The notes below the pieces were generated by a model, which saw only the letters and a program-made list of their open reading frames with translations, was not told the origin of the DNA and made no database searches. This document shows, piece by piece, positions 4,223 to 38,950 of a DNA stretch of 64,000 nt. Numbering within the stretch: position 1 is the first letter of the stretch; the number at the start of each line of letters is the position of its first letter. Location: contig CAVUUR010000004.1 of NCBI GenBank assembly GCA_963744715.1, positions 1-64,000 on the forward strand. Reading direction: 5' to 3'. The stretch comes from an uncultured bacterium. GTDB taxonomy: Bacteria; Babelota; Babeliae; Babelales; JACPOV01. A program made the translations under genes and the position numbers.

Positions 4223-5161
4223 GTGAATAAAATAATCTTTTCTTTTGTAATACTATTATGTTTCTTACAACAATCATCAGTAGTTGCGCAATTGGTTACA
4301 ACAGATGAAAAATCTAAAGAACAACAACCATTTCCTCTTGCCCTACTACCCAAAGATCTGCAAAATTTAATTACTTCTTATATGTGGGCCGTTGGCGATA
4401 GCCCAGATGAATTCAAACAAATAGCATTAAAACACAATAAAAATAAAACTATACAATCACAATTGACCACCTACAATCCAGTAACCTCTCGAGCTGAAGG
4501 TAAAAAATATGGTTTTCATGGCGAAAAAATCCCCATTAATTTTTATACCGGCAAAGACAATAATTCTTCTATTATTAACGTTGGTTGTATTATTGAACGT
4601 GCAGTACCATCTTCGTTGAATGGTTACAGCTATTTGGAAAGCCATGTAGAAACTACTCGCATTTTCTTAGATGGTCCATCAGGAATCTATACAACGTCAA
4701 TTACAAATGGGCAAAACGAGAATCCTACCATACTTGCATGCAGTTTATCCGTACATGGCGACCTTGCAATAGCATGGGAGGATAAAGATGATTCCTCGTA
4801 TGTTACTTTTTCAAAGCTGACTGAAGTTAAACAAGGCAAACCTATTGATCTAGGTACGAATAAGGTTCTAGCTCATTCTAGTACAAGTAACGGTGATACG
4901 TTAAATACAATTTTGTTTAATCGACAAGGAACGTTACTCACATCTATTTCTAATAATCTGGCTTGTCATAATGAAAAAGATATTAACTATATTCCAACCC
5001 CCAATAACAATACAACCCTAACTCCCGCTCAAATATGCAAACGCATGATACTGCCAATTGCTGGCGCACAAGATTTAGTAAGAGAAAAAAATGCTTTGGC
5101 CAAGCAACAAAAGGAAAAGAAAAAAAGTTCCTGGTTAGATTTACTTTTTGGTAAAAAATAA
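4223..5161 (+). CDS. Secreted hypothetical protein with F-box-like N-terminal motif (paralog 1 of 3)
   Basis: Signal peptide, then FPLALLPKDLQNLITSYM; clearly paralogous to the next two ORFs. Confidence 0.6.
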   Translation: MNKIIFSFVILLCFLQQSSVVAQLVTTDEKSKEQQPFPLALLPKDLQNLITSYMWAVGDSPDEFKQIALKHNKNKTIQSQLTTYNPVTSRAEGKKYGFHGEKIPINFYTGKDNNSSIINVGCIIERAVPSSLNGYSYLESHVETTRIFLDGPSGIYTTSITNGQNENPTILACSLSVHGDLAIAWEDKDDSSYVTFSKLTEVKQGKPIDLGTNKVLAHSSTSNGDTLNTILFNRQGTLLTSISNNLACHNEKDINYIPTPNNNTTLTPAQICKRMILPIAGAQDLVREKNALAKQQKEKKKSSWLDLLFGKK

Positions 5162-5180
5162 TGCTTTGTAAGGATATTCA

Positions 5181-6143
5181 ATGCATAAGAAAATAGTTTT
5201 CTCTCTCGTAGTACTATTATGTTTCTTACAACAATCATCGGTAGTGGCACTATTGGTTACAACGAATGAAAAATCTAAAGAACAAGAATCGTTTCCGCTT
5301 GCCCTACTACCCCAAGACATGCAAAATGTAATCATTTCTTATATGGAGGCCGTTGGCGATAGCAAGGATGAATTTCAAAGAATAATATTAGAATATGATA
5401 AGACTAAACCAACGTCATTAAAATTGATTACCGGTAATTTATTTGATTACATCAAACAAGAAACTTCGCAAGATGAATGTATCAAATATGGTTTTCATGG
5501 TAACAAAATACCCATTAATTTTTATACGCTCAAAGATAATAGCCCCTCGATTATTGAAGTTGGTTGTATTATTGCACGTGCACAAAAATCTATTTTGAAT
5601 GGCACTTGGTACTATAGTTTTTATGATCCAAGTACAAGTATCCGCATTTTTTTAGATAGCCCATCAGGAATTTATCAAACAGTAATTACCTATGATAAAC
5701 ACAAAAAAAAACCTACGATTCTTGGATGTAGCTTATCGGTACATGATGATCTTGCAATAGCATGGTTAGATAACAACGATCATTTTTTTAATATTACTTT
5801 TTCAAATCTTACTGAAGTAAAAAAAAGAAAGCCAATTGATTTAGATAAAGACAAGAATACATTAGATTTTTCGCACCTTAATCTATATTTAAATACCATG
5901 TTATTTAACCGACAAGGAACGTTACTTGCCTGTGTTCATCATGTTCCTCAGTCCCGCCAACAAACAATGGGACAAGTCTTCGGATGTATGTCAATCTCCA
6001 ATAAAGAACCACTAACTCTTGCTCAACTATGCAAACGCATGATACTGCCGATTGCCGGTGCACAGGATCTAGTAAGAGAAAAAAAAGCTTCAGAAAAAAA
6101 AGAAGACAAAAAAACATCCTGGTTAGATTTTTCTTTTTGGTGA
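5181..6143 (+). CDS. Secreted hypothetical protein with F-box-like N-terminal motif (paralog 2 of 3)
   Basis: Signal peptide, FPLALLPQDMQNVIISYM; shares CSLSVH.DLAIAW and LFNRQGTLL with paralog 1. Confidence 0.6.
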   Translation: MHKKIVFSLVVLLCFLQQSSVVALLVTTNEKSKEQESFPLALLPQDMQNVIISYMEAVGDSKDEFQRIILEYDKTKPTSLKLITGNLFDYIKQETSQDECIKYGFHGNKIPINFYTLKDNSPSIIEVGCIIARAQKSILNGTWYYSFYDPSTSIRIFLDSPSGIYQTVITYDKHKKKPTILGCSLSVHDDLAIAWLDNNDHFFNITFSNLTEVKKRKPIDLDKDKNTLDFSHLNLYLNTMLFNRQGTLLACVHHVPQSRQQTMGQVFGCMSISNKEPLTLAQLCKRMILPIAGAQDLVREKKASEKKEDKKTSWLDFSFW

Positions 6144-6170
6144 AAAAATAATGTTTTGCAAGGATATTCT

Positions 6171-7160
6171 ATGCATAAGAAAATAGTTTTCTCTCTTATA
6201 GCACTATTATGTTTCTTACAACAATCATTGGTAGTAGCGCAATTGGTTACAACAGATGAAAAATCTAAAGAACAAGAACCGTTTCCTCTTGTCCTACTAC
6301 CCCAAGATGTACAACATTTAATTATTTCTTATATGTGGGATATTGTAGACACCAAGGAGCAATTTAGGACGATAGCCGCACAATTCAATAACAATAAAAC
6401 GCTACAATCCCAACGGGCCACCTACGATCCAAGAACTTCGTGGTCCGAGCAGAGAAAATATGGATTTTCTGGTAAAAAAACTCCCATTTATTTTTATACC
6501 TTAAAAAATAATAAACCTTACATTAGTGAAGTTGGTTACATTATTGAAGACGCATGGCCATATCGCTTAAATATCAGTGCAAAGATCAGCTATTATAGTT
6601 ATAATTCTATGAAAAATCGCCAGCCAACTACCTGCATTTTTTTAAACGGCCCATCAACAACCTACGGCACGATACTCGCCAACAACATAATAAATAATAA
6701 AAAGAATATTATTGGTTGTAGTTTATCGGTACACGGCGATTTGGCAATCGCATATTGGGATAATAATGGCTCTCATATTACGTATACCGATCTTGATGAA
6801 GTTAAAAAAGATCAACCCATTGATTTGGAAAAAAATAAAGCATTATCTATTCTAGACAATGACTTTGATCATTACCGTTTAAATACCGTATTGTTTAATC
6901 ACCAAGGAACATTACTTGCGTGCGTGTATAATCACACCGATCAAAGCGCCCAATTGTTGCAGGATAACGAACATCATACTATTCTGCAACGCATGGAACA
7001 TATCCTAGCCCCCCGTAATACACCATTAACCTCTGAACAAATAGGTAAACGAATCCTGCATATACCAACACCTGAAATAAAAGCTTTGGTGAAACAAGGA
7101 AAAGAACAGAAGAAAAAAAACTCTTGGTTAAGTTTTTCTGGATTTTTCAGTAAAAAGTAA
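6171..7160 (+). CDS. Secreted hypothetical protein with F-box-like N-terminal motif (paralog 3 of 3)
   Basis: Start set at ATG 6171 by alignment to paralog 2 (AAGGA RBS); FPLVLLPQDVQHLIISYM. Confidence 0.6.
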   Translation: MHKKIVFSLIALLCFLQQSLVVAQLVTTDEKSKEQEPFPLVLLPQDVQHLIISYMWDIVDTKEQFRTIAAQFNNNKTLQSQRATYDPRTSWSEQRKYGFSGKKTPIYFYTLKNNKPYISEVGYIIEDAWPYRLNISAKISYYSYNSMKNRQPTTCIFLNGPSTTYGTILANNIINNKKNIIGCSLSVHGDLAIAYWDNNGSHITYTDLDEVKKDQPIDLEKNKALSILDNDFDHYRLNTVLFNHQGTLLACVYNHTDQSAQLLQDNEHHTILQRMEHILAPRNTPLTSEQIGKRILHIPTPEIKALVKQGKEQKKKNSWLSFSGFFSKK

Positions 7161-15238: not shown

Positions 15239-16225
15239 TTAAACCTGAAATTCATATACATTGCCCACTTTGTTTTGAGCAACAATAGAATTCCCCGCCC
15301 ATGAAAGGAAGGTGATAGGTGAACTTTGTTCGAAAACATATTTCATCGTTGGGTTTTTTAAAACTATTTTTTTTGATAATTCCATTTGCGCAGGAATATC
15401 CCAAACCATTACTTCAGCTTCATCAGTTCCTGTAATAACATTGTTGCCGGAAAGGTTAAATGCAACTGACATAACGTTATTGGAATGTATAAGTTTTGCT
15501 ACACATGCGTCGATTTCATCTTTCTTAATATTCCATATTCGTACGCTGTGATCTGCACAAGCGGATGCCACACGATGAGTTGCCGCATGAGAAGACAAAC
15601 AATGCACATTACCCCCTTTATGCACCTTCAATCTTTTTGTAATAATACCGGTACTATCGGCTATTTTTATAACAGGCTTACTTTCATTAGAAAAATTAGT
15701 AAAAACGATTGCATTATCCACCAAGCAGATTATTTTGTCCGCACCATAATGGGTAATAAAGTCAGTAGATTGTTGTTCTTCCAAAAATTTCAATTTCTTT
15801 ATGCCATCAAGCTCAGCAATAAGTAATTCTTGATTATTCAAAAATAATAACGGAGTTCCGTCCATATATTGTGTAATTTTTGCAACTTCTTTATTAGACT
15901 CACTGTCAAAGATTTTTATATAATCGGCACAACGGAGTGCCACATATTTTGCATTGGGTGATAATGCTACAGCACGTATAGGATCCTCGGGTAAAAAGGC
16001 GATTTGCTTTTTCTTACTGCTTTTATCTTTAATACACAACGATTTATTTTTTGAGATAATAAAAGAACTGCTATCGGGACTAACGGCAAGAAATCCGAAT
16101 AAAGAACGTATAGCTGTTGGTTCTTTAAGATTTTGTTCAGATGGTAAAGCAAGCTGACTGTCATCCATTGAATATACTGATTGCATAATGGCAGACAAAA
16201 CAATTACTATTATTTTTTTATTCAT
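15239..16225 (-). CDS. Secreted WD40-repeat protein
   Basis: Signal peptide; SACADHSVRIWN and ITGTDEAEVMVWD repeats. Confidence 0.85.
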   Translation of the reverse strand: MNKKIIVIVLSAIMQSVYSMDDSQLALPSEQNLKEPTAIRSLFGFLAVSPDSSSFIISKNKSLCIKDKSSKKKQIAFLPEDPIRAVALSPNAKYVALRCADYIKIFDSESNKEVAKITQYMDGTPLLFLNNQELLIAELDGIKKLKFLEEQQSTDFITHYGADKIICLVDNAIVFTNFSNESKPVIKIADSTGIITKRLKVHKGGNVHCLSSHAATHRVASACADHSVRIWNIKKDEIDACVAKLIHSNNVMSVAFNLSGNNVITGTDEAEVMVWDIPAQMELSKKIVLKNPTMKYVFEQSSPITFLSWAGNSIVAQNKVGNVYEFQV

Positions 16226-16372: not shown

Positions 16373-17629
16373 TTATTGATTAACATCACGAATAGATTCA
16401 AGGATGGCATTTAAATCTGAAGACCATGTATACACTCTGCCACAGGCGTCTTTAGTAATTATGCAACTCTTTGCCCATGAAACAAAGGTAATGCGACAGT
16501 TATCCTTAAAAATGTATTTAATTTTTGCCGTTGAAATTATTTTTCGTGAGCGAGATCCCTTTGGCTTCTCCCAAATATATACGGCATGATCATCTCTTGT
16601 CATGCCGGTAATAACCTTACTGCCATAGGGGCTAAAGCCTACTGAGTCCACTACATAAGGATGTTTAAATTCCACGATACATGCATCATCTGCTATTTTT
16701 TTTATATCCCATATTCGCACGCTGCGATCTTCAGATGCCGACGCCAAACAGTGAGTGTGTACATTAAAAGATAGATAATTTATATTTCCTGTATGCCCTT
16801 TTAATTTTTTTTCAATGGCACCTGAGTGAGTTACTATCTTTATAACTGGCTGGTTTTTACTGCAAAAGTTGGTAAAAATAATTTTTCTCCCCGCTAAACA
16901 TAATAGTTTTTCAATTCCGTTGTGAACAATAAGATCACGAATTTCTGTCCCCTTTTTAAATTCCCATTTTTTTATACTCGCATAAGTAGGAATAAGCAAT
17001 GCAGAATTGTTTAAAAATAAGGTAAACCGCTCTACGTCTTCATGTATTTTTTTGGTTTCTAGCGTTGCAATTTCTTTAGTTGATACACTATCATACATGG
17101 TTATGCAATCAGGATATCGTATCGCTACATGTTCTCCATCCGGTGATAATGCTACATGAAATACCGTATTAATTGTTGGAATGGATGCTATGACTCCGTT
17201 GCTTCTATTTTTTACAGATATGGATTGTTCTTCTTTAATCAAAAAACGAGTATGATCATTATTAACAGTACAGAGATTAGCTAACACCGTTCTTAACAGT
17301 GGTTTTTGCGCAATATTAATCGGTTGTTTATTATACTTTATTATCTTTGCAATCAAATCTGACGGAATATCTTTAATAAAGGTTTTAACCTTCTCTTTTG
17401 TTTGCTCATCCTGCCAATTAATTCCATCAGAAGATTCCTGTTTAAGGTATTTTTCGATAACGCTCGGTATCTTTTTTATACACAATTTTCGAAGTGAGGC
17501 AACCTTAAATATTTTTTGTTCTGAAACTTCCTGAGTAGGTTCTAATGGTGTGTTGAAGCAGTGCGTTAAATCCATTGCATATGCTGGTGATGCACTAATA
17601 AAAATAATAATGAACGCTATTTTGCGCAT
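16373..17629 (-). CDS. Secreted WD40-repeat protein with BC-box-like motif
   Basis: Signal peptide, VASLRKLCIKKI, then GHTG...SASEDRSVRIWD. Confidence 0.85.
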   Translation of the reverse strand: MRKIAFIIIFISASPAYAMDLTHCFNTPLEPTQEVSEQKIFKVASLRKLCIKKIPSVIEKYLKQESSDGINWQDEQTKEKVKTFIKDIPSDLIAKIIKYNKQPINIAQKPLLRTVLANLCTVNNDHTRFLIKEEQSISVKNRSNGVIASIPTINTVFHVALSPDGEHVAIRYPDCITMYDSVSTKEIATLETKKIHEDVERFTLFLNNSALLIPTYASIKKWEFKKGTEIRDLIVHNGIEKLLCLAGRKIIFTNFCSKNQPVIKIVTHSGAIEKKLKGHTGNINYLSFNVHTHCLASASEDRSVRIWDIKKIADDACIVEFKHPYVVDSVGFSPYGSKVITGMTRDDHAVYIWEKPKGSRSRKIISTAKIKYIFKDNCRITFVSWAKSCIITKDACGRVYTWSSDLNAILESIRDVNQ

Positions 17630-17877: not shown

Positions 17878-18564
17878 CTAAGCGGATTTCCCGGAAAGTA
17901 GCTTCAGAAGTGCCTGCGCTGCGGCTGCCGATGATGCAGGATTCTGCCCGGTAACCAGGCGACCATCAACGACCACAAAACTCTTCCAATCAGCTGCCTT
18001 CTCATAGAGACCACCCAGTCTCTTCAACTCATCTTCGACAAGAAATGGCACAACCTTGGTCAGGTGAACAGCTTCCTCTTCACCGTTAGTAAAACCGGTC
18101 ACGCGCTTGCCCTTCACAATTGGTGCTCCCTTATAGGTTACACGATGAAGTACACCGGGCGCATGACAAACTGCAGCAACCGGCTTGTCAGCATTGTAGA
18201 ACGACTCGATCAAAGCAATTGAATGCGCATTGTCAACAAGATCCCACATTGGGCCGTGCCCGCCGACATAGAACACCGCGTCAAAATCTTTCGCATTCAC
18301 ATCGGCCAGTTTGACCGTTCCAGAAAGTGCCTTTTGCGCCGCCTGATCCTGCTTGAATCGCGTCATTGCCGGAGTCTGACTTTCTGGCAGATCACTCTTG
18401 GGGTCAATCGGTGGTTGACCGCCCTTAGGTGAGGCCAACGTCAGCTCAACGCCAGCGTCACGGAATACATAATAAGGGGCCGCGAATTCCTCAAGCCAGA
18501 AGCCGGTCTTGCGACCAGTATTTCCCAGTTGATCGTGGGATGTCAGTACCATAAGTATCTTCAT
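17878..18564 (-). CDS. DJ-1/PfpI (ThiJ) family type 1 glutamine amidotransferase-like protein
   Basis: MKILMVLTSH, GFWLEE, GGHGPMWD, AVCHAP and TGQNPAS motifs; GGAG RBS; visibly GC-rich. Confidence 0.92.
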   Translation of the reverse strand: MKILMVLTSHDQLGNTGRKTGFWLEEFAAPYYVFRDAGVELTLASPKGGQPPIDPKSDLPESQTPAMTRFKQDQAAQKALSGTVKLADVNAKDFDAVFYVGGHGPMWDLVDNAHSIALIESFYNADKPVAAVCHAPGVLHRVTYKGAPIVKGKRVTGFTNGEEEAVHLTKVVPFLVEDELKRLGGLYEKAADWKSFVVVDGRLVTGQNPASSAAAAQALLKLLSGKSA

Positions 18565-18591
18565 ATTCTTTTCTCCGCTCAATGGAAATTA

Positions 18592-18898: not shown

Positions 18899-21800
18899 TC
18901 ATCCGCGTGAATACCGAAACCAAGAGTTCACTGAAGAAACATACATATAGGTGACTGCGTTACCATTTGCTGTTGCAGTAGGAGCGGCGCCAGCATTTAA
19001 TCCGGTAAAAGGACTCACAATTGTTGCACCGCCAGTTCCACCATTCAAAGCAGTAAAGGTTATACTATTTGTTGTCCCCAACATGACCGTAAAAATCTGG
19101 CCATCAATAGGACTTGGTGGAAAATTAATAGTTAATCCTGTTCTAGTTGCCGTAGTAGTTAATAATAGCAATGAGATACCACTGGTAACGGTTACTGTCT
19201 GATTATTCGCTGTTACTGCAAATGTTTGTGTTGCTTGACTTGCATAAATGTTTTTTACCGCTAACGCTGCGATCGCATTGATTGCAATCGTGCTAATATT
19301 CATCTGTTCAACCCCATTTGTATCAAATGATAAGGTATTGGCAGTCTGCGCAGTAATACCTGTATTAGTACTACCAGTAAATTGTAATGAAGGACTTGCT
19401 GTTGTCCCCGCAGGTAATACTAAAGTACCAGTCATGGTATCACCCGCTTTAAGCACATTCAGAGATGCTGCACCAACCAAAGCTGCTGTAATAGTACCTG
19501 CAGAGAAATTTCCTGAAGCATCACGTGCAACGATGGCACTTGGGGTATTGGCATTCGTTGCAGTTGTGGCAGAATTGGACACTTTGCCAGCAGTAACAAG
19601 GGTAGCCAATTTTGAATCAGTAATGGCAGCGGATGCACTCACATCGGCGTTGACAATGAGTGAAGTAGATAAATTACCTGAAGCATCAGTATGCACAACC
19701 CCTGCACTATTTAATCCATCAATAGTGACAACACCTGCTGATGAGATTTTCATACGCTCAGCGCCCGCAGTGCTTATCGAAAGTGTATCAGTCGTAGCTG
19801 CAGAAAAACCGGTCTTTGTACTTCCGGTGAAATTTAATGACGGGGTGCTCACTGCTCCAGCAGGCAGTTGCAGTGCACCGGTCATAGTATCACCAGCTTT
19901 CAAAACATTTAAGGATGCTGCTCCAGTTAAGCTTGCAGTTATTGTGCCAGCGGAAAAATTGCCCGAGGCGTCTCTTCGTACAATCGTGCTTGCAGTATTA
20001 TTTGCAGTCGCAGCATTTGCAGCAACCGTTGCTGAGGCAACGTTTGAAGCAGTTTGACCACCGACGGTAGAGACCACGGTTGCACTTTGTGTGCCAGTCA
20101 CATCACCAACTAATGATCCGGTAAAGTTAGTAGCCGTTGTTGCCGACGTTGCACTTGTGGCATTACCGGAAAGGTTCCCAGTCACATTACCAGTAAGATT
20201 TGCGGTAATGGTACCCGCTGCAAAATTACCTGATGCATCCCGTTTAACGATCGTAGAAGGCGTATTGGTATTTGTTGCAGCATTTGCAGCAACCGTTGCC
20301 AAAGCAACATTTGCCGCAGTTTGACCGCCAACAGTACTAACGACCGTTGCACTTTGCGTACCCGTAACATCACCAACTAATGAACCGGTAAAATTAGTTG
20401 CTGAACTGGCAGAACCGGACAAATTTGCAGTAATTGTTCCTGCAGAAAAATTACCTGATGCATCACGTGCAACAATGGCACTTGCTGTATTAGTACTTGT
20501 TGCAGTCGTGGCAGAATTGGCCACTTTGCCAGCAGTGACAATGGTAGCCAATTTTGAATCAGTAATGGCAGCAGATGCACTCACATCGGCGTTGACAATG
20601 AGTGAGGTAGATAAGTTACCTGAAGCATCAGTATGCACAACCCCTGCACTATTTAATCCATCAATAGTGACAACGCCTGCTGATGAGATTTTCATACGCT
20701 CAGAGCCGGCAGTACTCATCGATAATGTGTCCGCAGTAGCTGCAGAAAAACCGGTCGTTGGACTTCCGGTGAAATTTAATGATGGAGTGCTCACTGCTCC
20801 AGCAGGCAGTTGTAGAGCACCAGTCATAGTATCACCAGCTTTCAAAACATTTAAGGATGCTGCTCCAATTAAGCTTGCAGTTATGGTGCCAGTAGAAAAA
20901 TTACCGGAAGCATCTCGTTTGACGATCGTAGAAGCCGTATTCGTACTTGTTGCAGCATTTGCAGCAACCGTTGCCAAAGCAACATTTGCCGCAGTCTGAC
21001 CGCCAACAGTACTAACAACCGTTGCACTTTGCGTACCCGTCACATCACCAACTAATGAACCGGTAAAATTAGTGGCTGAACTGGCAGAACCGGACAAATT
21101 TGCAGTAATTGTTCCTGCAGAAAAATTTCCTGAACTATCACGTGCAACGATCGAACTTGGCGTATTGGCACTTGTTGCAGTTGTGGCAGAATTGGCAACT
21201 TTGCCAGCAGTAGCAATGGTAGCTAATTTTGAATCAGTAATGGCAGCGGATGCGCTCACATCGGCGTTGACAATGAGTGAGGTAGATAAGTTACCTGAAG
21301 CATCAGTATGCACAACCCCTGCACTATTTAATCCATCAATAGTGACAACGCCTGCTGATGAGATTTTCATACGCTCAGAGCCGGCAGTACTCATCGATAA
21401 TGTGTCCGCAGTAGCTGCAGAAAAACCGGTCGTTGGACTTCCGGTGAAATTTAATGATGGAATGCTCACTGCTCCAGCAGGAAGTTGTAATGAACCGGTC
21501 ATCACATCACCAGCTTTCAAAACATTTAAGGATGCTGCTCCAGTTAAGCTTGCAGTTATGGTGCCAGTAGAAAAATTACCGGAAGCGTCTCGTTTGACGA
21601 TCGTAGAAGCCGTATTCGTACTTGTTGCAGCATTTGCAGCAACCGTTGCTGAAGCAACATTTGAAGCAGTTTGACCACCGACGGTAGAGACCACTGTTGC
21701 ACTTTGTGTGCCAGTCACATCACCCGATAATGAACCGGTAAAATTTGTAGCAGTTGTGGCCGAAGTTGCGCTCGTTGCATTGCCTGAAAGATTCCCAGTC

Positions 21801-24800
21801 ACATTGCCAGTAAGATTTGCAGCAATGGTACCCGCCGCAAAATTACCGGAAGCGTCTCGTTTGACGATCGTAGAAGCTGTGTCCGTACTTGTTGCAGCAT
21901 TTGCAGCAACCGTTGCCGAAGAAACATTTGCCGCAGTCTGACCGCCAACAGTACTAACAACCGTTGCACTTTGCGTACCCGTCACATCACCACTCAATGA
22001 ACCGGTAAAATTAGTGGCTGAACTGGCAGAACCGGACAAATTTGCAGTAATTGTTCCTGCAGAAAAATTACCTGATGCATCACGTGCAACGATCGAACTT
22101 GGCGTATTGGCACTTGTTGCAGTTGTGGCAGAATTGGCCACTTTGCCAGCAGTGGAAATGGTAGCCAATTTTGAGTCAGTAATGGCAGCGGATGCACTCA
22201 CATCGGCGTTGACAATGAGTGAAGTAGATAAATTACCTGAAGCATCAGTATGCACAACCCCTGCACTATTTAATCCATCAATAGTAACAACACCTGCCGA
22301 TGAGATTTTCATACGCTCAGATCCTGCAGTGCTCATTGAGAGTGTGTCTGCAGTAGCTGCAGAAAATCAGGTCGTTGGACTTCCGGTAAAATTTAATGAT
22401 GGAGTGCTCGCAGTTCCTGCAGGCAGTTGCAATGCACCGGTCATAGTATCACCAGCTTTAGAAACTTTACCATTAAGCTGCGTTTGTACCGAAGAAGTAG
22501 TCCCTGATAAAAATCCTAATTCGGTGTCGGTCGTAACACTTGAAGTTAATTGATCACTTGCATTGGTCGTAAGCGCTCTATTGGCAGTCAAACCTGCTAC
22601 GATTAAATTACCATCAGTCTGTAATGTTCCAGCTGAAGCGCGATATAAATCGGTGTCACCAGCCCAAACAAGTTTCGCTTGCATGTTAGTTGGCAATGGC
22701 GTGTTAGTTGCTGTAGGAAATTCTACCTGATTATCAAAACCATTGAGTACCATCACCGCGTTTGATCCACGTGCAGCCTGTCCCGACGTATCGTTATTAC
22801 TGTAGTTAAAATTTAAATCTGCCGAAGTACCTACTTTGTTAATACTCCATCCACGAACATTATCGGGCATCCCCACATTACCCGTATCAGAAATAAGCGT
22901 AATGCCTGCTTGTTTTGTACGATCTTGCGTCACGACAAAATAAGAAGCATCATTATTTGTTGCCTGCGTACCATTACATGTTGGATCATTAGTAGGATTT
23001 TCATAGATCGTTCCCTTAGCTCCATAATAATTCGGCTCATAGGTAAGAGTCGGTACTGTTCCCGTAGCGTTGAGTACTTCATAGAGAGATTGCTGAGTAT
23101 CAGTTGTGTTACCGATTGCAAGATGTGCTGGTAGCGTAGCTTCATCAAATGCTGCAAAACTCACGTTTGTAGGGTTAGCAATACTTATATCATCGACTGA
23201 AAAGACGCCACCTAAAAAATGTAACGTAGAACTACCAACTTGCACGACATCAGTCGTACAATTTGATATCGAAACAGAATCAGCAAAAATAGAGGTACTG
23301 CTTGTATCTCCTGTTGCACCACAAGCAATAGCGGTAACCGCACCATCAATTGAACAAGAATCGGCGCGTATAGTAGCGCCCGTTGTTGCTTGTAATGCGG
23401 TTCCTTGCGCAACACCTGCAGTGGCACATTGGAAGCTGCATCCAGTAATTGCTATGGTAGTGCCAGCACCCGATGCTTGTATATTAACGGTATTTGTAAA
23501 ATTATTTGCAAAATTATAACCAACAATAGTTGCCGCACTGCTCCCAGAAATCACGATACCATTATTACAACTGCCCCAACTACCAGAAATAAATTCTACC
23601 GTTGCACCTCCCGTTATGGATGCACCAGTGTCCATGGTACCAAATACTACGCCCTCAACAGCCATGCCAGCGGCACTGCCTATAACACTAATTCCCGTAT
23701 TTACCGGTGAGCCAGTTAAAGAGCCCACAATAATTGAATTTTTCAGAGCAGCAGAAGCATTGTTAATTGCTATACCAGTTCCATTAGCAAGTGCTTGTAT
23801 ATTTTCAAGAGCAAGCTGAGCTGCCGTAGTTGCTGATATATTAATTCCCGTTTGGAATTGGCGAATATCAAGCGATTCAAAGCGACCTATCCCTGGCGAA
23901 CTACTTATTATGGAAATTCCATTTGCTGTTGAACCAATCCCACCTGCTTGTATTCCAAATTGACTAAATAATATATTAGCAGTGGTACAACTGAATAAAT
24001 CAATCGATAAATCTTGTGGTATTACAATAGTGCCTGATATTGAGCTTCCCACAATGTTAATACCATCAGCGGTAATAGTAATTGGGCCACCTGAATTGTT
24101 TTCAATAAAGATACCTGCACCAATTTGGATAGCTATAGGATTAGCAAAACTTGCAACAGTATTGGCTACTGACACAGCTTGGCTCACAGTTCTAAATGGG
24201 GCACTGAATGAACCATCGTTACTATCGTTGCCATTCAAATCAACATAATATGTTTTACTCACAGAAGGTGTTCCACCAACCGTTGCCCACTGTGTAGCGG
24301 AAGCGGAAGATGCTTGTAGAAATTGCCCAATAATTGGAGCTGTCGCAGGCAAATCAACCGTATAACTGCTTGGTACTGACGTTGGGGCACGCAATCCAAC
24401 ATATCCACTATTTGTCGCGTCTTGCCAGCGTATTGCTGATTGTGAGGCCAGAGCAAGATTACCCGTCATAGTATCACCAGTTTTGAGCACATTCAATGAC
24501 GCCGCACCAATCAAGCTTGCAGTGATGGTATTTGCAGAAAAATTTCCGGAGCCATCACGAGCAACAATGGTACTTGGCGTATTGGCACTTGTTGCATCAG
24601 TTGCAAGGATAATATTATCAGTGTTGTTCGTAATAAGTATATGAGAATCACCGGCACCAATAGTTTTCAAGTTAATCGTATTACCCGTTTTATCTCGAAA
24701 GATCTGACCGACTTGACCGCCAACATTTGCAGCAGTTGTTTGGTCTTGCATAGAAAATTGTGCAAAAGTAATCGGATCAGTATCAATAATAGCTGTTGGC

Positions 24801-27800
24801 GTATTACAAACCCAACTTGTACCTGCATTGATAGTTCCAGATTCAATAAGTACATAGGCAGTACCAGCCTCAGTGCCTGAAGCAAAATCAGTTGGACGTG
24901 TCCAGCTGCCAGCTTGGGCGAGCCAAAGACCATTTTGTACTGGATTTGTTTGACCGACTAATAAGACACGGGCATTGCTTATAAGTGTAACACCATCGAT
25001 TGTCTGTAATCCAGTTAAGGTAATATTGGTCAGAGAAACAACAACAGCAGGACTGTGGACCGTAAAGCCCGTGGCAACTGCATTGTCTACATATGATTTT
25101 GTTGCCACATCATTAGGGTTAGTGACACTACCACTGATTAAAATCATGTTGGTGCTAAAATTCCCGAAAGAATCACGCGCTACAATCGTAGAAGGTGTAT
25201 TAGTACTTGTTGCAGCATTTGCAGCAACCGTTGCCGAAGCGACATTTGCCGCAGTCTGACCACCAACGGTAGAGACAACCGTTGCACTTTGTGTGCCAGT
25301 CACATCACCCGATAATGAACCAGTAAAATTGGTAGCCGTTGTGGCACTTGTTGCAGAAGTTGCTGTCGTCGCATTACCAAACAGATTCCCGTCACATCAC
25401 CCGTAACATCACCAGTAAGACTTGCAGTTATTGTGCCCGCAGAAAAATTTCCCGAAGCGTCTCTGCGTACAATAGTGCTTGCAGTATTATTTGCAGTTGC
25501 AGCATTTGCAGCAACCGTTGCTGAAGCAACATCTGTTGCACTTTGACCACCAACAGTATTGACAACCGTTGCACTTTGCGCGCCAATCACATCACCAACT
25601 AATGATCCGGTAAAATTGGTGGCAGTTGTGGCCGAAGTTGCACTCGTGGCATTACCGGAAAGGTTCCCAGTACATTACCAGTAAGATTTGCAGTAATGGT
25701 ACCCGCTGCAAAATTACCTGATGCATCACGCTGGACGATAGTAGAAGCTGTGTTCGTACTTGTTGAAGCATTTGCAGCAACCGTCGCTGATGCAATATTT
25801 GTAGCAGTCTGACCGCCAACGGTAGAAACAACCGTTGCACTTTGTGTACCCGTCACATCACCACTCAATGAACCGGTGAAATTGGTGGATGAACTGGCAG
25901 ACCCGGAGATATTACCAGTTAGATTTGCAGTAATATTATTTGCAGAAAAATTTCCTGAACTATCACGTGCAACGATCGCACTTGGCGTATTTACATCCGT
26001 TGCAGTTGTGGCAGAATTGGCAACTTTGCCAACAGTGGAAATGGTAGCTAATTTGGTATCAGTAATGGCAGCAGATGCACTCACATCAGCATCGACAATA
26101 AGTGAAGTTGATAAAGCACCAGAAGGATCCGTATGCACTACACCTGCACTATTTAATCCATCAATGGTAACAATACCTGTTGCTGAAATGTTCATGCGCT
26201 CAGATCCTGCAGTGCTCATTGAGAGTGTGTCTGCAGTAGCTGCAGAAAAACCAGTCGCTGGACTTCCCGTGAAATTTAATGACGGAGTGCTTACTGCTCC
26301 AGCAGGCAGTTGTAGAGCACCGGTCATAGTATCACCAGCTTTCAAAACATTTAAGGATGCTGCTCCAGTAAGATTTGCAGCAATGGTGCCCGCTGCAAAA
26401 TTACCGGAAGCGTCTCGTTTGACGATCGTAGAAGCTGTGTCCGTACTTGTTGCAGCATTTGCAGCAACCGTTGCCGAAGCAACATTTGTCGCAGTCTGAC
26501 CGCCCACAAGACTGACCACGGTTGCACTTTGCGTACCCGTCACATCACCAACTAATGATCCTGTAAAGTTTGTAGCAGTTGTGGCCGAAGTTGCACTCGT
26601 GGCATTACCGGAAAGGTTCCCAGTCACATTACCAGTAAGATTTGCAGTAATATTATTTGCAGAAAAATTACCGGAAGCATCACGTTTAACGATCGTAGAA
26701 GCTGTGTCCGTACTTGTTGCAGCATTTGCAGCAACCGTTGCTGATGCAATATTTGTAGCAGTCTGACCGCCAACGGTAGAAACAACCGTTGCACTTTGTG
26801 TACCCGTCACATCACCACTCAATGAACCGGTGAAATTGGTGGCTGAACTGGCAGAACCGGAGATATTACCAGTTAGATTTGCAGTAATATTATTTGCAGA
26901 AAAATTTCCTGATGCATCACGTGCAACGATCGAACTTGGCGTATTGGCACTTGTTGCAGTTGTGGCAGAATTGGCCACTTTGCCAACAGTGGAAATGGTA
27001 GCTAATTTGGTATCAGTAATGGCAGCAGATGCACTCACATCAGCATCGACAATAAGTGAAGTTGATAAAGCACCAGAGGGATCCGTATGCACTACACCTG
27101 CACTATTTAATCCATCAATGGTAACAATACCTGTTGCTGAAATGTTCATGCGCTCAGAGCCGGCAGTACTCATCGATAATGTATCGGCAGTAGCTGCAGA
27201 AAATCCAGTCGTTGGACTTCCCGTGAAATTTAATGACGGAGTGCTTACTGCTCCAGCAGGCAGTTGTAGAGCACCAGTCATAGTATCACCAGCTTTCAAA
27301 ACATTTAAGGATGCTGCTCCAGTAAGATTTGCAGCAATGGTGCCCGCTGCAAAATTACCGGAAGCGTCTCGTTTGACGATCGTAGAAGCTGTGTCCGTAC
27401 TTGTTGCAGCATTTGCAGCAACCGTTGCCGAAGAAACATTTGCCGCAGTCTGACCGCCCACAAAACTGACCACGGTTGCACTTTGTGTGCCCGTCACATC
27501 ACCAACTAATGAACCGGTAAAATTAGTGGCTGAACTGGCAGAACCGGACAAATTTGCAGTAATTGTTCCTGCAGAAAAATTTCCTGAACTATCACGTGCA
27601 ACGATCGAACTTGGCGTATTGGCACTTGTTGCAGTTGTGGCAGAATTGGCAACTTTGCCAGCAGTAGCAATGGTAGCCAATTTTGAGTCAGTAATGGCAG
27701 CGGATGCACTCACATCAGCATCGACAATAAGTGAAGTTGATAAAGCACCAGAAGGATCAGTATGTACTACCCCTGCACTATTTAATCCATCAATAGTGAC

Positions 27801-30800
27801 AACACCTGTCGATGAGATTTTCATGCGCTCGGATCCCGCAGTGCTCATTGAGAGTGTGTCTGCAGTAGCTGCAGAAAATCCGGTCGTTGGACTTCCGGTA
27901 AAATTTAATGATGGAGTGCTCGCAGTTCCTGCAGGCAGTTGCAATGCACCGGTCATAGTATCACCAGCTTTAGAAACTTTACCATTAAGCTGCGTTTGTA
28001 CCGAAGAAGTAGTCCCTGATAAAAATCCTAATTCGGTGTCGGTCGTAACACTTGAAGTTAATTGATCACTTGCATTGGTCGTAAGCGCTCTATTGGCAGT
28101 CAAACCTGCTACGATTAAATTACCATCAGTCTGTAATGTTCCAGCTGAAGCGCGATATAAATCGGTGTCACCAGCCCAAACAAGTTTCGCTTGCATGTTA
28201 GTTGGCAATGGCGTGTTAGTTGCTGTAGGAAATTCTACCTGATTATCAAAACCATTGAGTACCATCACCGCGTTTGATCCACGTGCAGCCTGTCCCGACG
28301 TATCGTTATTACTGTAGTTAAAATTTAAATCTGCCGAAGTACCTACTTTGTTAATACTCCATCCACGAACATTGTCAGAGTTCCCAGCATTAACGGTATC
28401 AGAAATAAGCGTAATGCCTGCTTGTTTTGTACGATCTTGCGTCACGACAAAGTAAGAAGCATCATTATTCGTTGCTTGAGTACCATTGCACGTTGGATCA
28501 CTGGTAGGGTTCTCATAAATCGTTCCTTTAGCGCCGTAATAATTCGGTTCATAGGTAAGATTTGGTACTGTTCCTGTACTGCTGATCACTTGATACAAGA
28601 CTTGTCTAGTATCAGTCGTATTGCCAATAGAAAGACTTGCAGGAAGCGTTGCTATATCAAATCCAGAAAAACTTACATTGGTAGGATTTGCAATGGTAAC
28701 TTTATTTGTTGAAAACGTACCACCGACAAAATTAAGTGCAGAACTTCCCACTTGCACTACATCGGTTGTACAATTTGATATCGAAACAGAATTTGCATTG
28801 ATGGAAGTAGTATTGGTGTCTCCCGTTGCACCACACGAAATCGCAATAATTGCACCATCAATTGAACAAGAATCGGCGCGCATAGTAGCGCCTGTTGTAG
28901 ATTGCAATGCGACACCTTGCGCAATACCTGCAGTAGCACATTGAAAACTCGATCCAGTAACCACTATAACAGTTCCTGCATTAGATCCGCTTACATTGAT
29001 TGAACTTGCATTATTAGTTACAAAATTACATCCGGTTATATCCGTTTTACTTGCGCCAGAGACAATAATACTATTAGTGCCCGAGACAAAATTACTCCCT
29101 ACTAATAGAAGATTTGCACCGCCAACAACCGATATGCCCGTTTGTACGAGCGTGAATAAAGTACTTAATGTCGATACGAGTGATTTTGATCCATTAACGA
29201 TCATGCCAGTATTTGCGGGAGTACTGCCAGTGGTAGCACCGCTAAACGCTGAATTTCTGACTATGCTTCGGATATTAGTAGTAGAAAGTCCAGTACTATT
29301 ATTTAAAAATTGAACACTATCACATAATATGATTGGTATCCCTGTCGTACTGCTAGTATTCAAACCCGTTTGAAATTGATTAATGATTAATAATTGAAAC
29401 TCACCCACTCCCATCGTATCAGTCACCACCGAAATAGCACTTGCTGTCGATGAGGGCGAACCTGAGAGCGTAAAACTAATAAATTGAGTGCTTGCCGTTG
29501 TACAATGAAATAAATCAATAGAAGCAGTCGATGGTGTTATTATGGTACTTATTGTAGAACTTCCGACAATACTGATACCATTAGCGGTAATCGTAATTGG
29601 TCCGCCCGAATTGTTTTCAACAAAGATACCTGCCCCAACTTGAATAACGACAGGATTTGCCGAGCTCGCAACAGAATTGGCTACTACCACTGCATGGCTC
29701 ACTGTTCTGAATGGTGAGCTTATTGAACCATCGTTACTATCATTACCATTCAAATCAACGTAATATGTTTTAGTCGCAGAAGGTGTTCCACCGATCGTTG
29801 CCCACTGCGTAGCAGAGGAGGAAGATGCTTGTAAAAATTGCCCAACGGTTGGCGCTGTTCCCGGCAAATCGACCGTATAACTGCTGGGTACTGACGTTGG
29901 TGCACGTAGTCCAACATATCCACTACTTGTCGCATCCTGCCATTGTATTGGTGATTGCGCAGCCATCGCAAGAGGACCTGTCATAGCATCACCAGCTTTG
30001 AGCACATTCAGTGATGCTGCACCAATTAAATTTGCGGTAATGGTACCCGCAGAAAAATTTCCTGAGCCATCACGTTTTACAATAGTATTAGCAGTGTTAG
30101 AAGCTGTTGCAGCATTTGTAGCAACCGTTGCTGAAGCAACATTTGCAGCAGTCTGCCCACCAACAAGGCTCACCACCGTTGCACTTTGTGTACCGGTCAC
30201 GTCACCACTCAGTGAGCCAGTAAAATTAGTCGCTGTTGTTGCCGTTGTTGCATTGCCAGACAGATTTCCAGTTACATTTCCGGTTACGTTACCTGTTACA
30301 TCCCCACTTACATTACCAGTAACATTGCCGCTTACATTACCCGTAAGATTTCCTGTGAGAGTTGTAGCAGAAAGAGTAGTTGCATTGATTATATTGGCTG
30401 TCAGAGCGTTAACATTCGTGATATTATCAGAATCATCAAGTGTAATCCCCGATTCCTGTATACTCGTTGACCCACTGGGCGTATCTGTTCTGATGATTCG
30501 ATTATCAGCAGAAAATAGTGTCATTGTTTCCACATTGCCACTACCTGCTGGTGTTGCATAAATTAAATTTCCTGCACCATCACTTCCCAAAAATGTATTG
30601 ACTGCTCCTACTATGTTAGGCCAGCTTACCGTATTGCCATTTTTGGTGATACCTTCAATAGTAATGTTACCAGAATCATCAACTAATACTGAAGAATCTT
30701 TAATGACCTTGCCGGTATTATCTGCATATCGTGCCACCGCATTTATAGTAGAGGAAGAGGGACCTACAACTATATTACTACCACCTGATATTATTGTGCC

Positions 30801-31064
30801 ATCAACAACAAGATCGCCGTTTATAACTTCTGAACCACCTACAGTCACACTGCCTTCAATAAATTCGTTTGACTGGATAAGAACATTATTAAATACAACA
30901 GTATTTGGTATAGAAACTGGTGTAAATCGCGTTATTACTCGATTGTCTGATTCTGATGTTTCCGTTTTTTTTTCTAAAATTGCTTTCTCAGCGCCATCTG
31001 CTGACAAGCAATGCATATGCGCTAATAATACAATCAATGAAATAATATATGTGCTGTGCTTCAT
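18899..31064 (-). CDS. Giant repetitive secreted fibre/adhesin-like protein (~4,055 aa once two 1-nt deletions and one in-frame TGA are repaired)
   Basis: ORFs 25599-31064, 25300-25590, 22367-25303 and 18899-22336 share the same repeats. Sister repeats show a missing base near 25671, a missing base near 25388 and GGA>TGA at 22367-22369. Signal peptide, KAGDTMTG repeats and two YYVDLNGNDSNDG beta-helix modules. Confidence 0.8.
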
Positions 31065-36630: not shown

Positions 36631-37728
36631 TTACAAAATGGCTTTCTTGTCCTTATTATTAAACTCTTGGGCAGTATCTTTTAGTGTATTATTCAAATCG
36701 GAACAATCTAAGTTCAATCTATACACACTACCCAGACCGTTTTGAGCGATAATATAACCCGCCCATGAAAGAAAAGTAATGGGGAAATCATTGTTAAAGG
36801 TATATTTTATTATTGGTTGTGAATCCATTCCCCAAACATATATCGAATGATAATCTTTGCTCGATCCGATAGCAATATAGTTGCCACAAGGGCTAAATGC
36901 TGCTGAATCAACCTCATAAGGAGTCTCTATCACCGCTACACATGAATTTTCGACATCCTTTTTTATATCCCAAATACGCACCGTACGCTCATATTCGGAT
37001 ACTGATGCAAAGCAATGAGTTGCTGCGTGAGATAATAATTGATCTATATTTTTTGTATGCCCGCTCAACTTTTTTTTAATCAGTCCCTTATAATTTGTTA
37101 TTTTTATAATAGGTTTTTCTTTGCCACAAAAATTAGTGAAAATGATCGTATCGTTTATGGTGCATAACTTCTTCTTTGATCCCTCATGTTTAATAAAATC
37201 AGTAGGTTTTTTCTCTTGCGAGAATTTCCACTTTTGTATACCCGCATAATCTGCAATAAGCAATTCCTTATCATGCAAAAATAATAATGAATATCCGTTA
37301 CCATTGCTATTATTGTTACTATGTGCAATCTCTTGAGGTTTATTCTTAGTAATATCGTAGACCTTGAGATGATCATAATATCCCAATGCCACGTATGCAG
37401 CATTGGGCGATAATGCCACATGATATATATAATCTTTGGCTCGTATAGATGCCAGTATATTTTTTTCATCATCGTGTATAGATAACAATTCCCCTTCTGC
37501 AATACTTTTTTTTGTTAAAAAACGCGTGTGATTATGATTAACAGCGCGCAAATCACATAAAGAATCAAGCAGTTCCGGTTCTTTTTCAATAGTAATACGT
37601 TGTGAAGAGCCGCTACATAGTTTCTGTTGTTGAACGTTTTGATTGATTTCTTGCAATGCTTTACGCAGTTGCATATCCATTGAACATAATGGTTGTGTGA
37701 TACATAGTATTATGAGAAGTTTATTCAT
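36631..37728 (-). CDS. Secreted WD40-repeat protein
   Basis: Start MNKLL at 37728 overlaps the upstream stop; GHTK...ERTVRIWD. Confidence 0.85.
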   Translation of the reverse strand: MNKLLIILCITQPLCSMDMQLRKALQEINQNVQQQKLCSGSSQRITIEKEPELLDSLCDLRAVNHNHTRFLTKKSIAEGELLSIHDDEKNILASIRAKDYIYHVALSPNAAYVALGYYDHLKVYDITKNKPQEIAHSNNNSNGNGYSLLFLHDKELLIADYAGIQKWKFSQEKKPTDFIKHEGSKKKLCTINDTIIFTNFCGKEKPIIKITNYKGLIKKKLSGHTKNIDQLLSHAATHCFASVSEYERTVRIWDIKKDVENSCVAVIETPYEVDSAAFSPCGNYIAIGSSKDYHSIYVWGMDSQPIIKYTFNNDFPITFLSWAGYIIAQNGLGSVYRLNLDCSDLNNTLKDTAQEFNNKDKKAIL

Positions 37729-38950
37729 GAGTAATCTTTTTCTTTTCTTCTTTTTTTGATTCTTCGGCAATGGCGGTAAGCAGATTATTTAAATCTATAG
37801 AGTCTGATTTCCATCTATAAACAAATCCATGTCCATCCTGGGCAATAACAGACTTATCTACCCATGAAATAAATGTTATAGGAAAATCATCTTTGAAGAC
37901 ATGTTTCATTATTATTGCTTGTGAATCTATATCCCAAACATACACGGTATGATCATACCTATTAGTTCCTGTAACAATTTTTCTGCCCGATGGGTTAAAG
38001 CACATAGAGTCAAAGTCACAAGTATGTTTAAGTACGGCTTTACATGCATTTTTTTTATTCTTTTTAATATCCCATATTCGCACGGTATCATCATCGGCAG
38101 CGGATGCCAAGTACTGAGTTACCGGATTAAAAGATAAATAATGTATACTTCCCGCATGTCCTTTTAATTTTTTTTCAATGACACCTAGGTCATTTGCTAT
38201 GGTTATATCTTGTTCATTGAAATCGTTAATAAAAGCAACTTTATTATTCACCGAACAGATCTTATTCATTCCATATACCATAGCAGTAATGAAATTATCT
38301 GGTTCTTCGTTCTCTAGAAACTTCCACTTTTGTATAACATGATAACCAGCAATAATCAATTCAATATCATTCAAAAATGATGACGACTCAAAATTTCCTT
38401 TATGAGATTTAATTTCTATAAATTTATTAGAAGTAATATCATAGACTTTTACGCACTCACCACAAGTAACTGCCATATACCTTTCATTAGGCGATAATGC
38501 TATAGTAAATCCATGATTTTCTGTTGGTAAAACCGATATCAATGTATCTTTCTCATCTTTCATTAAGATAGATTTTTCTTCTTGAATAAAAAAACGGGTA
38601 TGATTAGCATTAACTGCACGCAATGAATAACAACCTATTAATTCCGGATTGATCTGATTATATTTTATTATCTCTGAAATAAAATTTACTGGAATATCTT
38701 GAACAAAAGTTTTAATCTTTTCTTTTGTTCGCTTATTCTCCCACTTTATAATTCTATTACGAGATTTTTGCTTAAGATACTTTTCAATGACTTCTGGTAT
38801 CTTTTTTATACACAATTGTTGTAACGTGGAAACGTTACATTGTGGTTGTAAAATTTTATTATCACTCTCCAATGTTTTGCTCAGTTGCATATCCATTGAA
38901 TATAACGGTTGTGTGATAAACAACATTGGTATGAGCAGTATTTTATTCAT
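37721..38950 (-). CDS. Secreted WD40-repeat protein with BC-box-like motif
   Basis: Start MNKILL behind AAGGA; VSTLQQLCIKKI; GHAG...SAADDDTVRIWD. Confidence 0.85.
   Translation of the reverse strand: MNKILLIPMLFITQPLYSMDMQLSKTLESDNKILQPQCNVSTLQQLCIKKIPEVIEKYLKQKSRNRIIKWENKRTKEKIKTFVQDIPVNFISEIIKYNQINPELIGCYSLRAVNANHTRFFIQEEKSILMKDEKDTLISVLPTENHGFTIALSPNERYMAVTCGECVKVYDITSNKFIEIKSHKGNFESSSFLNDIELIIAGYHVIQKWKFLENEEPDNFITAMVYGMNKICSVNNKVAFINDFNEQDITIANDLGVIEKKLKGHAGSIHYLSFNPVTQYLASAADDDTVRIWDIKKNKKNACKAVLKHTCDFDSMCFNPSGRKIVTGTNRYDHTVYVWDIDSQAIIMKHVFKDDFPITFISWVDKSVIAQDGHGFVYRWKSDSIDLNNLLTAIAEESKKEEKKKITHE

Follow-up and report, generated by a model that had tools for sequence, protein, structure and literature searches.

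A bacterium of the phylum Babelota (Dependentiae) encodes a short two-motif module that, judged by its sequence, is probably a mimic of the substrate receptors of Elongin C-cullin ligases, used against a protist host. Two WD40 genes in the window (the whole stretch of 64,000 nucleotides that we analysed) carry the module, and comparison across genomes points to a genome-wide and phylum-wide family rather than a pair. The Elongin C route to hijacking cullin ligases is well known in viruses, and bacteria are known chiefly for F-box mimics. We consider the Babelota module a real and apparently undescribed family-level feature and, on sequence statistics, a probable variant of cullin-ligase receptor mimicry.

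In P0001, the first of these genes, the motif pair follows a signal-like leader and precedes a WD40 propeller (see the table). After the leader comes a recurrent xM[D/E] sequence, here M19-D20, which opens the presumed mature chain. Excerpts of PMC3355856 give the BC-box consensus as (S,T,P)LXXX(C,S,A)XXX-hydrophobic and the Cul2-box consensus as hydrophobic-PXX-hydrophobic-XXX-hydrophobic, 8-23 aa after the BC box. An earlier note on this DNA had read both patterns in P0001 and a conserved copy in a paralog, P0002, and both readings hold. The first consensus is matched by S45-I54 of P0001, within VASLRKLCIKKI (residues 43-54, 17468-17503), and by T42-I51 of P0002, within VSTLQQLCIKKI (residues 40-51); the second is matched by I88-I96 and I86-I94, respectively. 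Identity between the two proteins is 42% overall and 58% across the module. The note was also right that the spacing of ~33 aa is long: at 33 and 34 aa it exceeds the published range.

Features of the two module-bearing WD40 genes and of their tandem paralogs, in window coordinates
Feature	Position	Strand	Content or basis
P0001 gene, 418-aa ORF	16373..17629	(-)	leader, BC-box/cullin-box-like module, WD40 propeller, C-terminal helix
P0001 signal-peptide-like hydrophobic leader, residues 1-18	17576..17629	(-)	sequence and crude hydropathy scan
P0001 BC-box-like motif, S45-I54 (SLRKLCIKKI)	17468..17497	(-)	consensus of PMC3355856 (excerpt)
P0001 variable spacer, exactly 33 aa	17369..17467	(-)	remainder of helix 1, loop, helix 75-85
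P0001 cullin-box-like motif, I88-I96 (IPSDLIAKI)	17342..17368	(-)	caps predicted helix 90-100
P0001 WD40 beta-propeller, about residues 119-403	16421..17275	(-)	candidate substrate-binding domain
P0001 C-terminal helix, residues 405-417	16379..16417	(-)	conserved leucines L406, L410
P0002, second WD40 gene with module, 409 aa	37721..38950	(-)	ORF from its ATG
P0002 BC-box-like motif, T42-I51 (TLQQLCIKKI)	38798..38827	(-)	
P0002 cullin-box-like motif, residues 86-94 (IPVNFISEI)	38669..38695	(-)	spacer 34 aa
Tandem paralog downstream of P0001	15239..16225	(-)	leader and propeller kept; without module, without C-terminal helix
Tandem paralog downstream of P0002	36631..37728	(-)	most of module gone; possible BC-box remnant only

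Both window genes encode WD40 proteins, with PF00400 at 52 and 64 bits in P0001 and P0002 (cut-off 27) and a beta-propeller fold. An AlphaFold2 model of P0001 built on a 7-sequence alignment (mean pLDDT 80) predicts helices at 46-65, 75-85 and 90-100, then the propeller and a last helix at 405-417. The BC-box-like motif opens the first predicted helix, and the same three helices are predicted for the module in isolation (pLDDT 83.5). A fold search with the full-length model returned propellers only among its matches. For the module by itself, Foldseek with the 70-residue model reached E 2.5 at best (VHL at rank 18, E 8.1), and a VIA search gave a best Z of 4.6 and none >=5; these matches are not meaningful, and the module may still have a VHL-like arrangement. 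A search of the ESM Atlas gave unnamed matches at 0.84 or below.

One lone 10-residue match is unremarkable, and the significance of the BC-box-like motif lies in its recurrence by position. The pattern of the earlier note, taken as [STP]LxxxCxxx[IVL], has 40 matches in the genome's 1133 ORFs against 18.7 ± 4.3 in shuffled sequences (200 shuffles, maximum 31); at residues 20-70 it has 13 against 3.2 ± 1.7 (maximum 9). A tighter pattern, [STP]LxxLC, which is post hoc and was picked after hits were seen, has 16 matches within the same residue range, where shuffles give 1.5 ± 1.3 (maximum 6). A leader ending in xM[DEQ] precedes 14 of the 20 BC-box-like matches at residues 10-70. Among these 14 carriers, selected on the first box alone, a strict second box (hydrophobic-P-xx-hydrophobic-xxx-hydrophobic) stands 21-34 aa downstream in 8, or in 10 if Cys is allowed, against a background of 3-4% both in 1006 other proteins and in the 95 other leader-bearing proteins. 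The 8 strict cases are not independent, since seven of them are WD40 paralogs and the eighth is a short ORF like their N-terminus. Profile searching adds four N-terminal carriers (E 0.002-0.011), while the reversed profile reaches only E 0.059 at best. We thereby estimate about 14-18 putative carriers in this genome, a count that leaves aside two own-genome profile matches, an internal one (C9:63220, E 0.001) and one with the second box only (C9:121241).

Conservation within the seven WD40 paralogs is concentrated in the two boxes. Mean identity is 50% in the BC box and 49% in the second box, compared with 24% in the linker, 22% in the spacer, and 21% and 36% in the two propeller halves. Five residues are invariant (L46, L49, C50, I88 and P89 in P0001 numbering). 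A second family of carriers, whose spacer is short and SOCS-like, comprises G000 C2:137247, C12:20707, C12:21395, C12:177690 and C12:179312 (L006, L007), and L052. Three fully read members have a C-terminal hydrophobic segment, and this family may possibly consist of membrane-anchored Elongin C recruiters.

The module extends well beyond this genome. The search covered 41 relatives first and the full set of 261 phylum genomes next; 68 of the 261 had a module match at E<=0.05, a noisy tally that counts seed genomes as well as matches with stop codons, and that marks an upper end rather than a distribution. In other Babelota, the module stands before unrelated propellers, ankyrin repeats, LRR-like domains and unknown domains. 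With six seed loci set aside beforehand, 23 non-seed loci gave 26 profile matches, and 23 of these 26 lie at most 105 aa from the frame start and after a hydrophobic stretch, compared with 33% expected from position alone (L044, L049 and L055, non-N-terminal or implausible, were scored as misses). Because the profile contains no leader, this N-terminal placement behind a hydrophobic stretch is an independent check.

Substitutions and spacing in the relatives fit known BC boxes. The BC-box Cys position holds C in 9, A in 9, S in 2 and T in 2 of 22 relatives, a spectrum that, as far as sequence can tell, matches the (C,S,A) set given in excerpts of PMC3355856. A second box is recognisable in 19 of the 22; it starts with Leu in most relatives and with Ile in the window genes. 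Its spacers run from 14 to 32 aa, and 13 of the 19 fall at 14-23 aa, within the published rule that the window genes exceed. Thus, the long spacing weighs less as an obstacle than it did when only the window was considered, and the 33-aa spacer is the long end of a continuum.

Homologues that can be detected are nearly all Babelota-like proteins, and all three named matches of the module profile (3/3) are Candidatus Dependentiae. A 33-sequence profile (A6) searched against 1.84 billion representative proteins gave 34 matches at E<=0.001, mostly seeds or near relatives, with a repeat-protein artefact as the top match. These 34 included no recognised eukaryotic receptor for Elongin C. Among the 21 that were read, the new ones include P0146 (LRR-like by eye) and P0162 (a further member of the WD40 family). 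P0141 and P0148, repeat artefacts by appearance, and P0155, an Aplysia protein matched along 8 stretches, were set aside. A homologue search with residues 20-125 recovered the query alone (1 of 77 candidates).

The alternative that survives best, though unlikely, is that the module is a Babelota-specific helical cap, a chaperone-binding site or a secretion targeting signal, and that its BC-box likeness arose by convergence of amphipathic helices. This would suit a module that always comes after a leader and is so nearly confined to Babelota-like proteins, and unrelated proteins are indeed matched by short amphipathic helix pairs. The C-terminal helix could also pack on the module, since both are gone in the 15239-16225 paralog; however, the 36631-37728 paralog retains this helix despite its missing module. 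A general export signal sits poorly with the 95 proteins in the genome that have a leader and xM[DEQ] and lack the BC-box-like pattern, against 14 leader-bearing carriers. Unrelated folds follow the module, which therefore is not a propeller cap, and the occurrence of C, A, S or T at one helix position is what tight contact with a groove predicts.

The two remaining alternatives are both improbable. F-boxes likewise open with hydrophobic-P-x-[DE]-hydrophobic, which resembles the second motif; this motif might open an F-box-like, Skp1-binding element, with the first helix accessory or Skp1-mimicking, and bring the protein into an SCF-type (Cul1) ligase or into direct contact with a cullin. The leader-bearing proteins C2:92482 and C12:135514 have such a motif and no BC box, sub-threshold Skp1_POZ-like domains occur in the genome, and an F-box protein is reported in Babela (excerpts of PMC4378268). 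However, neither the module sequences nor the genome gave a Pfam F-box match (PF12937 / PF00646), the model runs almost straight from the second helix into propeller strands, and the first motif is equally conserved and obeys BC-box substitution rules. That the module is instead a sponge or decoy, binding Elongin C without an active ligase so as to titrate it or block host receptors, would agree with a second box that is weak or absent in several carriers (4/14 even when relaxed), with the tandem BC-box-like motifs of P0146 and with carriers that are short ORFs of 103-162 aa, but is hard to reconcile with a second box conserved as strongly as the first in most WD40 carriers and with repeated fusion of the module to classic substrate-binding repeat domains.

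P0146 itself is a leader-bearing LRR-like protein in which two BC-box-like motifs stand in tandem. An LP-x-[DE]-hydrophobic-xxx-I helix without a BC box occurs in leader-bearing proteins at window 4223-7160(+) and at G000 C2:92482, C9:125576 and C12:135514. By eye these are F-box-like, with no Pfam F-box match, and they include the tandem paralogs 5181-6143 and 6156-7160. Two other leader-bearing window proteins, 48839-50329(+) (E 0.003) and 40037-41734(-) (E 0.006), have sub-threshold Skp1_POZ-like N-terminal domains, and the latter also has weak LRR matches. These similarities suggest candidate BTB/Skp1-like cullin adaptors and a wider ligase-mimic toolkit; compared with the PDB, a neighbouring Skp1-like domain gave chance matches only.

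To weigh the favoured reading of an Elongin C-cullin receptor mimic, four profiles with overlapping membership (A2, A3, A4 and A6) were compared with 177,635 sequences from the PDB. Yeast Rad7 (5zb2, an entry that holds Elongin C too), matched in its N-terminal segment, ranked first for A2 (E 0.055) and A6 (E 0.002), second for A3 (E 0.065) and behind only two DHDDS chains for A4 (E 0.006). This makes Rad7 the most consistent PDB match, at E 0.002-0.065, with decoys scoring equally: unrelated helical proteins equal or beat it (DHDDS E 1e-4, Pds5 E 0.002). Its segment SLQSLCITKI aligns with the first box only, and Rad7 differs from the window proteins as an LRR DNA-repair protein. HIV Vif 141-159 was also among the matches (E 0.69), and we take both this and the matched Rad7 segment to be Elongin C-binding boxes. 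The eukaryotic LRR-type proteins PDB 9y6s chain 8F and 9fqr chain Qx, one of them TCTE1 in an axonemal structure, weakly match the first box and may contain unrecognised BC boxes.

Domain models assign the module to no established class. The module sequences gave no Pfam match to F-box, VHL or Elongin A and none above cut-off to SOCS. The best SOCS_box score in the genome's own modules was 14.2 bits (E 0.054, 1 of 14 sequences, cut-off 23.5), with none in the window modules and 0 of 22 in the relatives' modules, and Elongin_A (PF06881) had no genome match at E<=1. In the window genes, IPSD and IPVN stand in place of an LP-hydrophobic-P Cul5 box. Over the 261 phylum genomes, Pfam SOCS_box (PF07525) matched 29 at E<=0.05, where most matches were noise, either short or interrupted by stops, and a single one lay above cut-off. 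This one, L065:1423-2382 in another Babelota genome (G185), has a leader, a SOCS box with LPLP and then ankyrin repeats, an ASB-like composition in reversed order. Its SOCS box scores 25.5 bits as a segment (cut-off 23.5) and 20.5 bits in the whole protein. The link between L065 and the module is weak (17 and 35 of 500 shuffles score as high; hhalign probability 11.6%), and all that L065 shows, by its sequence, is that a textbook Elongin C box can occupy this place in the architecture within the phylum.

The genome (1.26 Mb in 12 contigs, mostly ~35% GC, 86% complete) encodes two secretin genes and three ATP/ADP translocase-family frames, which fit the description of TM6 in parts of PMC4776705. 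Cultured members of the phylum are protist parasites, according to excerpts of PMC6561590 and PMC4378268. The latter excerpts already report ubiquitin-system mimicry, including the F-box protein, in Babela, and the former describe signal sequences in 44% of Chromulinavorax proteins, many of these without known function. By sequence, the module-bearing proteins are probably secreted; the periplasm is the farthest point that Sec export reaches on its own. The leader would direct them to Sec, and a type II-like secretin or vesicles would probably bring them to the protist cytosol.

BC boxes insert into a groove of Elongin C. Helix 1 would put Leu46, Cys50 and Ile54 into this groove in the same manner, and the Pro-capped helix 88-100 would touch both Elongin C and the N-terminus of a cullin. 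This cullin would be the host's own partner of Elongin C, which need not be Cul2. The propeller would capture a host protein, leading to its ubiquitylation and probably its degradation, and paralogs without the module might, more speculatively, bind similar targets without degrading them.

The CRL2 label is the weakest part of this proposal, and we regard it as doubtful because Cul2 is described as animal-specific (excerpts of PMC2785787) and the known hosts of the phylum are protists. Of the bacterial CRL2-type receptor mimic envisaged in the earlier note, we therefore keep the Elongin C-dependent receptor mimic and drop the cullin assignment. The same excerpts argue that Cul2 and Cul5 arose in animals and that yeast Elongin C partners Cul3, note that protist cullins are sparsely sampled, and claim separate origins of Elongin-cullin ligases in animals and fungi; yeast Rad7-Elc1-Cul3 is a ligase (excerpts of PMC4832922). 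A cullin search of the bacterial genome gave 0 matches, and its controls likewise 0, which makes the result uninformative. A giant-virus MAG contig from IMG/VR (L077:139-639) encodes an Elongin C that carries an N-terminal extension and is ~73% identical to its animal counterpart.

The module shares with the VHL-box CRL2 receptors (VHL, LRR-1 and FEM-1) both consensus motifs, in the same order, beside a repeat-type substrate-binding domain. Unlike these, it is bacterial, follows a signal-like leader, has a spacer of 33 rather than 8-23 aa and no Pfam or fold match, is known from sequence alone, and probably meets a protist host without animal Cul2. SOCS-box WD40 and ankyrin proteins (WSB and ASB, of CRL5) likewise combine a box with a repeat domain, and L065 carries a Pfam-level SOCS box, whereas the window module lies at the N-terminus, has its boxes far apart and shows no LP-hydrophobic-P signature for Cul5. 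Viral hijackers of Elongin BC (orthopoxvirus ANK/BC proteins, HIV Vif and adenovirus E4orf6) are pathogen proteins with a BC box that redirects host cullin ligases, and the poxvirus ANK/BC proteins are the viral precedent (excerpts of PMC8399815 and PMC3355856). However, the viral proteins are made in the cytosol, and the poxvirus boxes are C-terminal and reduced, whereas the Babelota proteins are bacterial, of a secreted type and paralogous to one another.

Bacterial F-box effectors offer a further parallel. Legionella AnkB, presumably an F-box effector, and the Babela F-box protein place cullin-ligase receptor motifs in host-associated bacteria, but F-boxes work through Skp1/Cul1. For Babela, this parallel rests on excerpts of PMC4378268. 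Bacterial SOCS boxes are not unheard of: excerpts of PMC9743535 read such domain annotations in Endozoicomonas as immune suppression, with no mention of Elongin there. Term searches of the accessible main texts on Babela (PMC4378268) and TM6 (PMC4776705) returned F-box, WD40 and ankyrin proteins and no SOCS, and a term search of the accessible part of a Legionella effector atlas (PMC11696984) returned no SOCS, Elongin or BC box. In the open literature, outside supplementary tables and subscription papers, we found no description of an Elongin-docking module in Babelota and, among titles and abstracts, no BC-box/Elongin family of bacterial effectors of this kind.

We lean, with modest confidence, towards a broader reading in which a portable BC-box/cullin-box cassette underlies phylum-wide Sec-exported mimics on WD40, ankyrin, LRR-like and novel domains, in up to ~18 copies per genome and accompanied by box-less decoys. 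If this is true, it would be a bacterial expansion of Elongin C ligase hijacking that did not turn up in the literature we covered, and would imply Elongin C-cullin ligases at work in the protist hosts, ligases of which little has been described so far. A receptor family, if true, would give a testable function to some unexplained secreted Babelota proteins, and its modules would be baits for the cullin partner of Elongin C in protists. The modules could also yield compact Elongin C recruiters for research on targeted degradation.

Immediately downstream of each module gene in the window lies a tandem paralog with leader and propeller but without the module. In a propeller-only tree of 9 proteins, the two box-less paralogs and three carriers together form a group (support 82/91) whose internal order is unresolved. 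The four proteins outside this group all carry the module, so that module loss is the simpler reading for the box-less paralogs, which are possible decoys or non-degrading binders.

Directly upstream of P0001, a gene at 17878-18582(-) is DJ-1/PfpI-like by eye and more GC-rich than its neighbours; its recent acquisition is possible. Further along, at 18899-31064(-), lie three very long ORFs of 1145, 978 and 1821 aa, the first of which is rich in Ala, Thr and Ser, has long internal repeats and looks adhesin- or fibre-like by eye.
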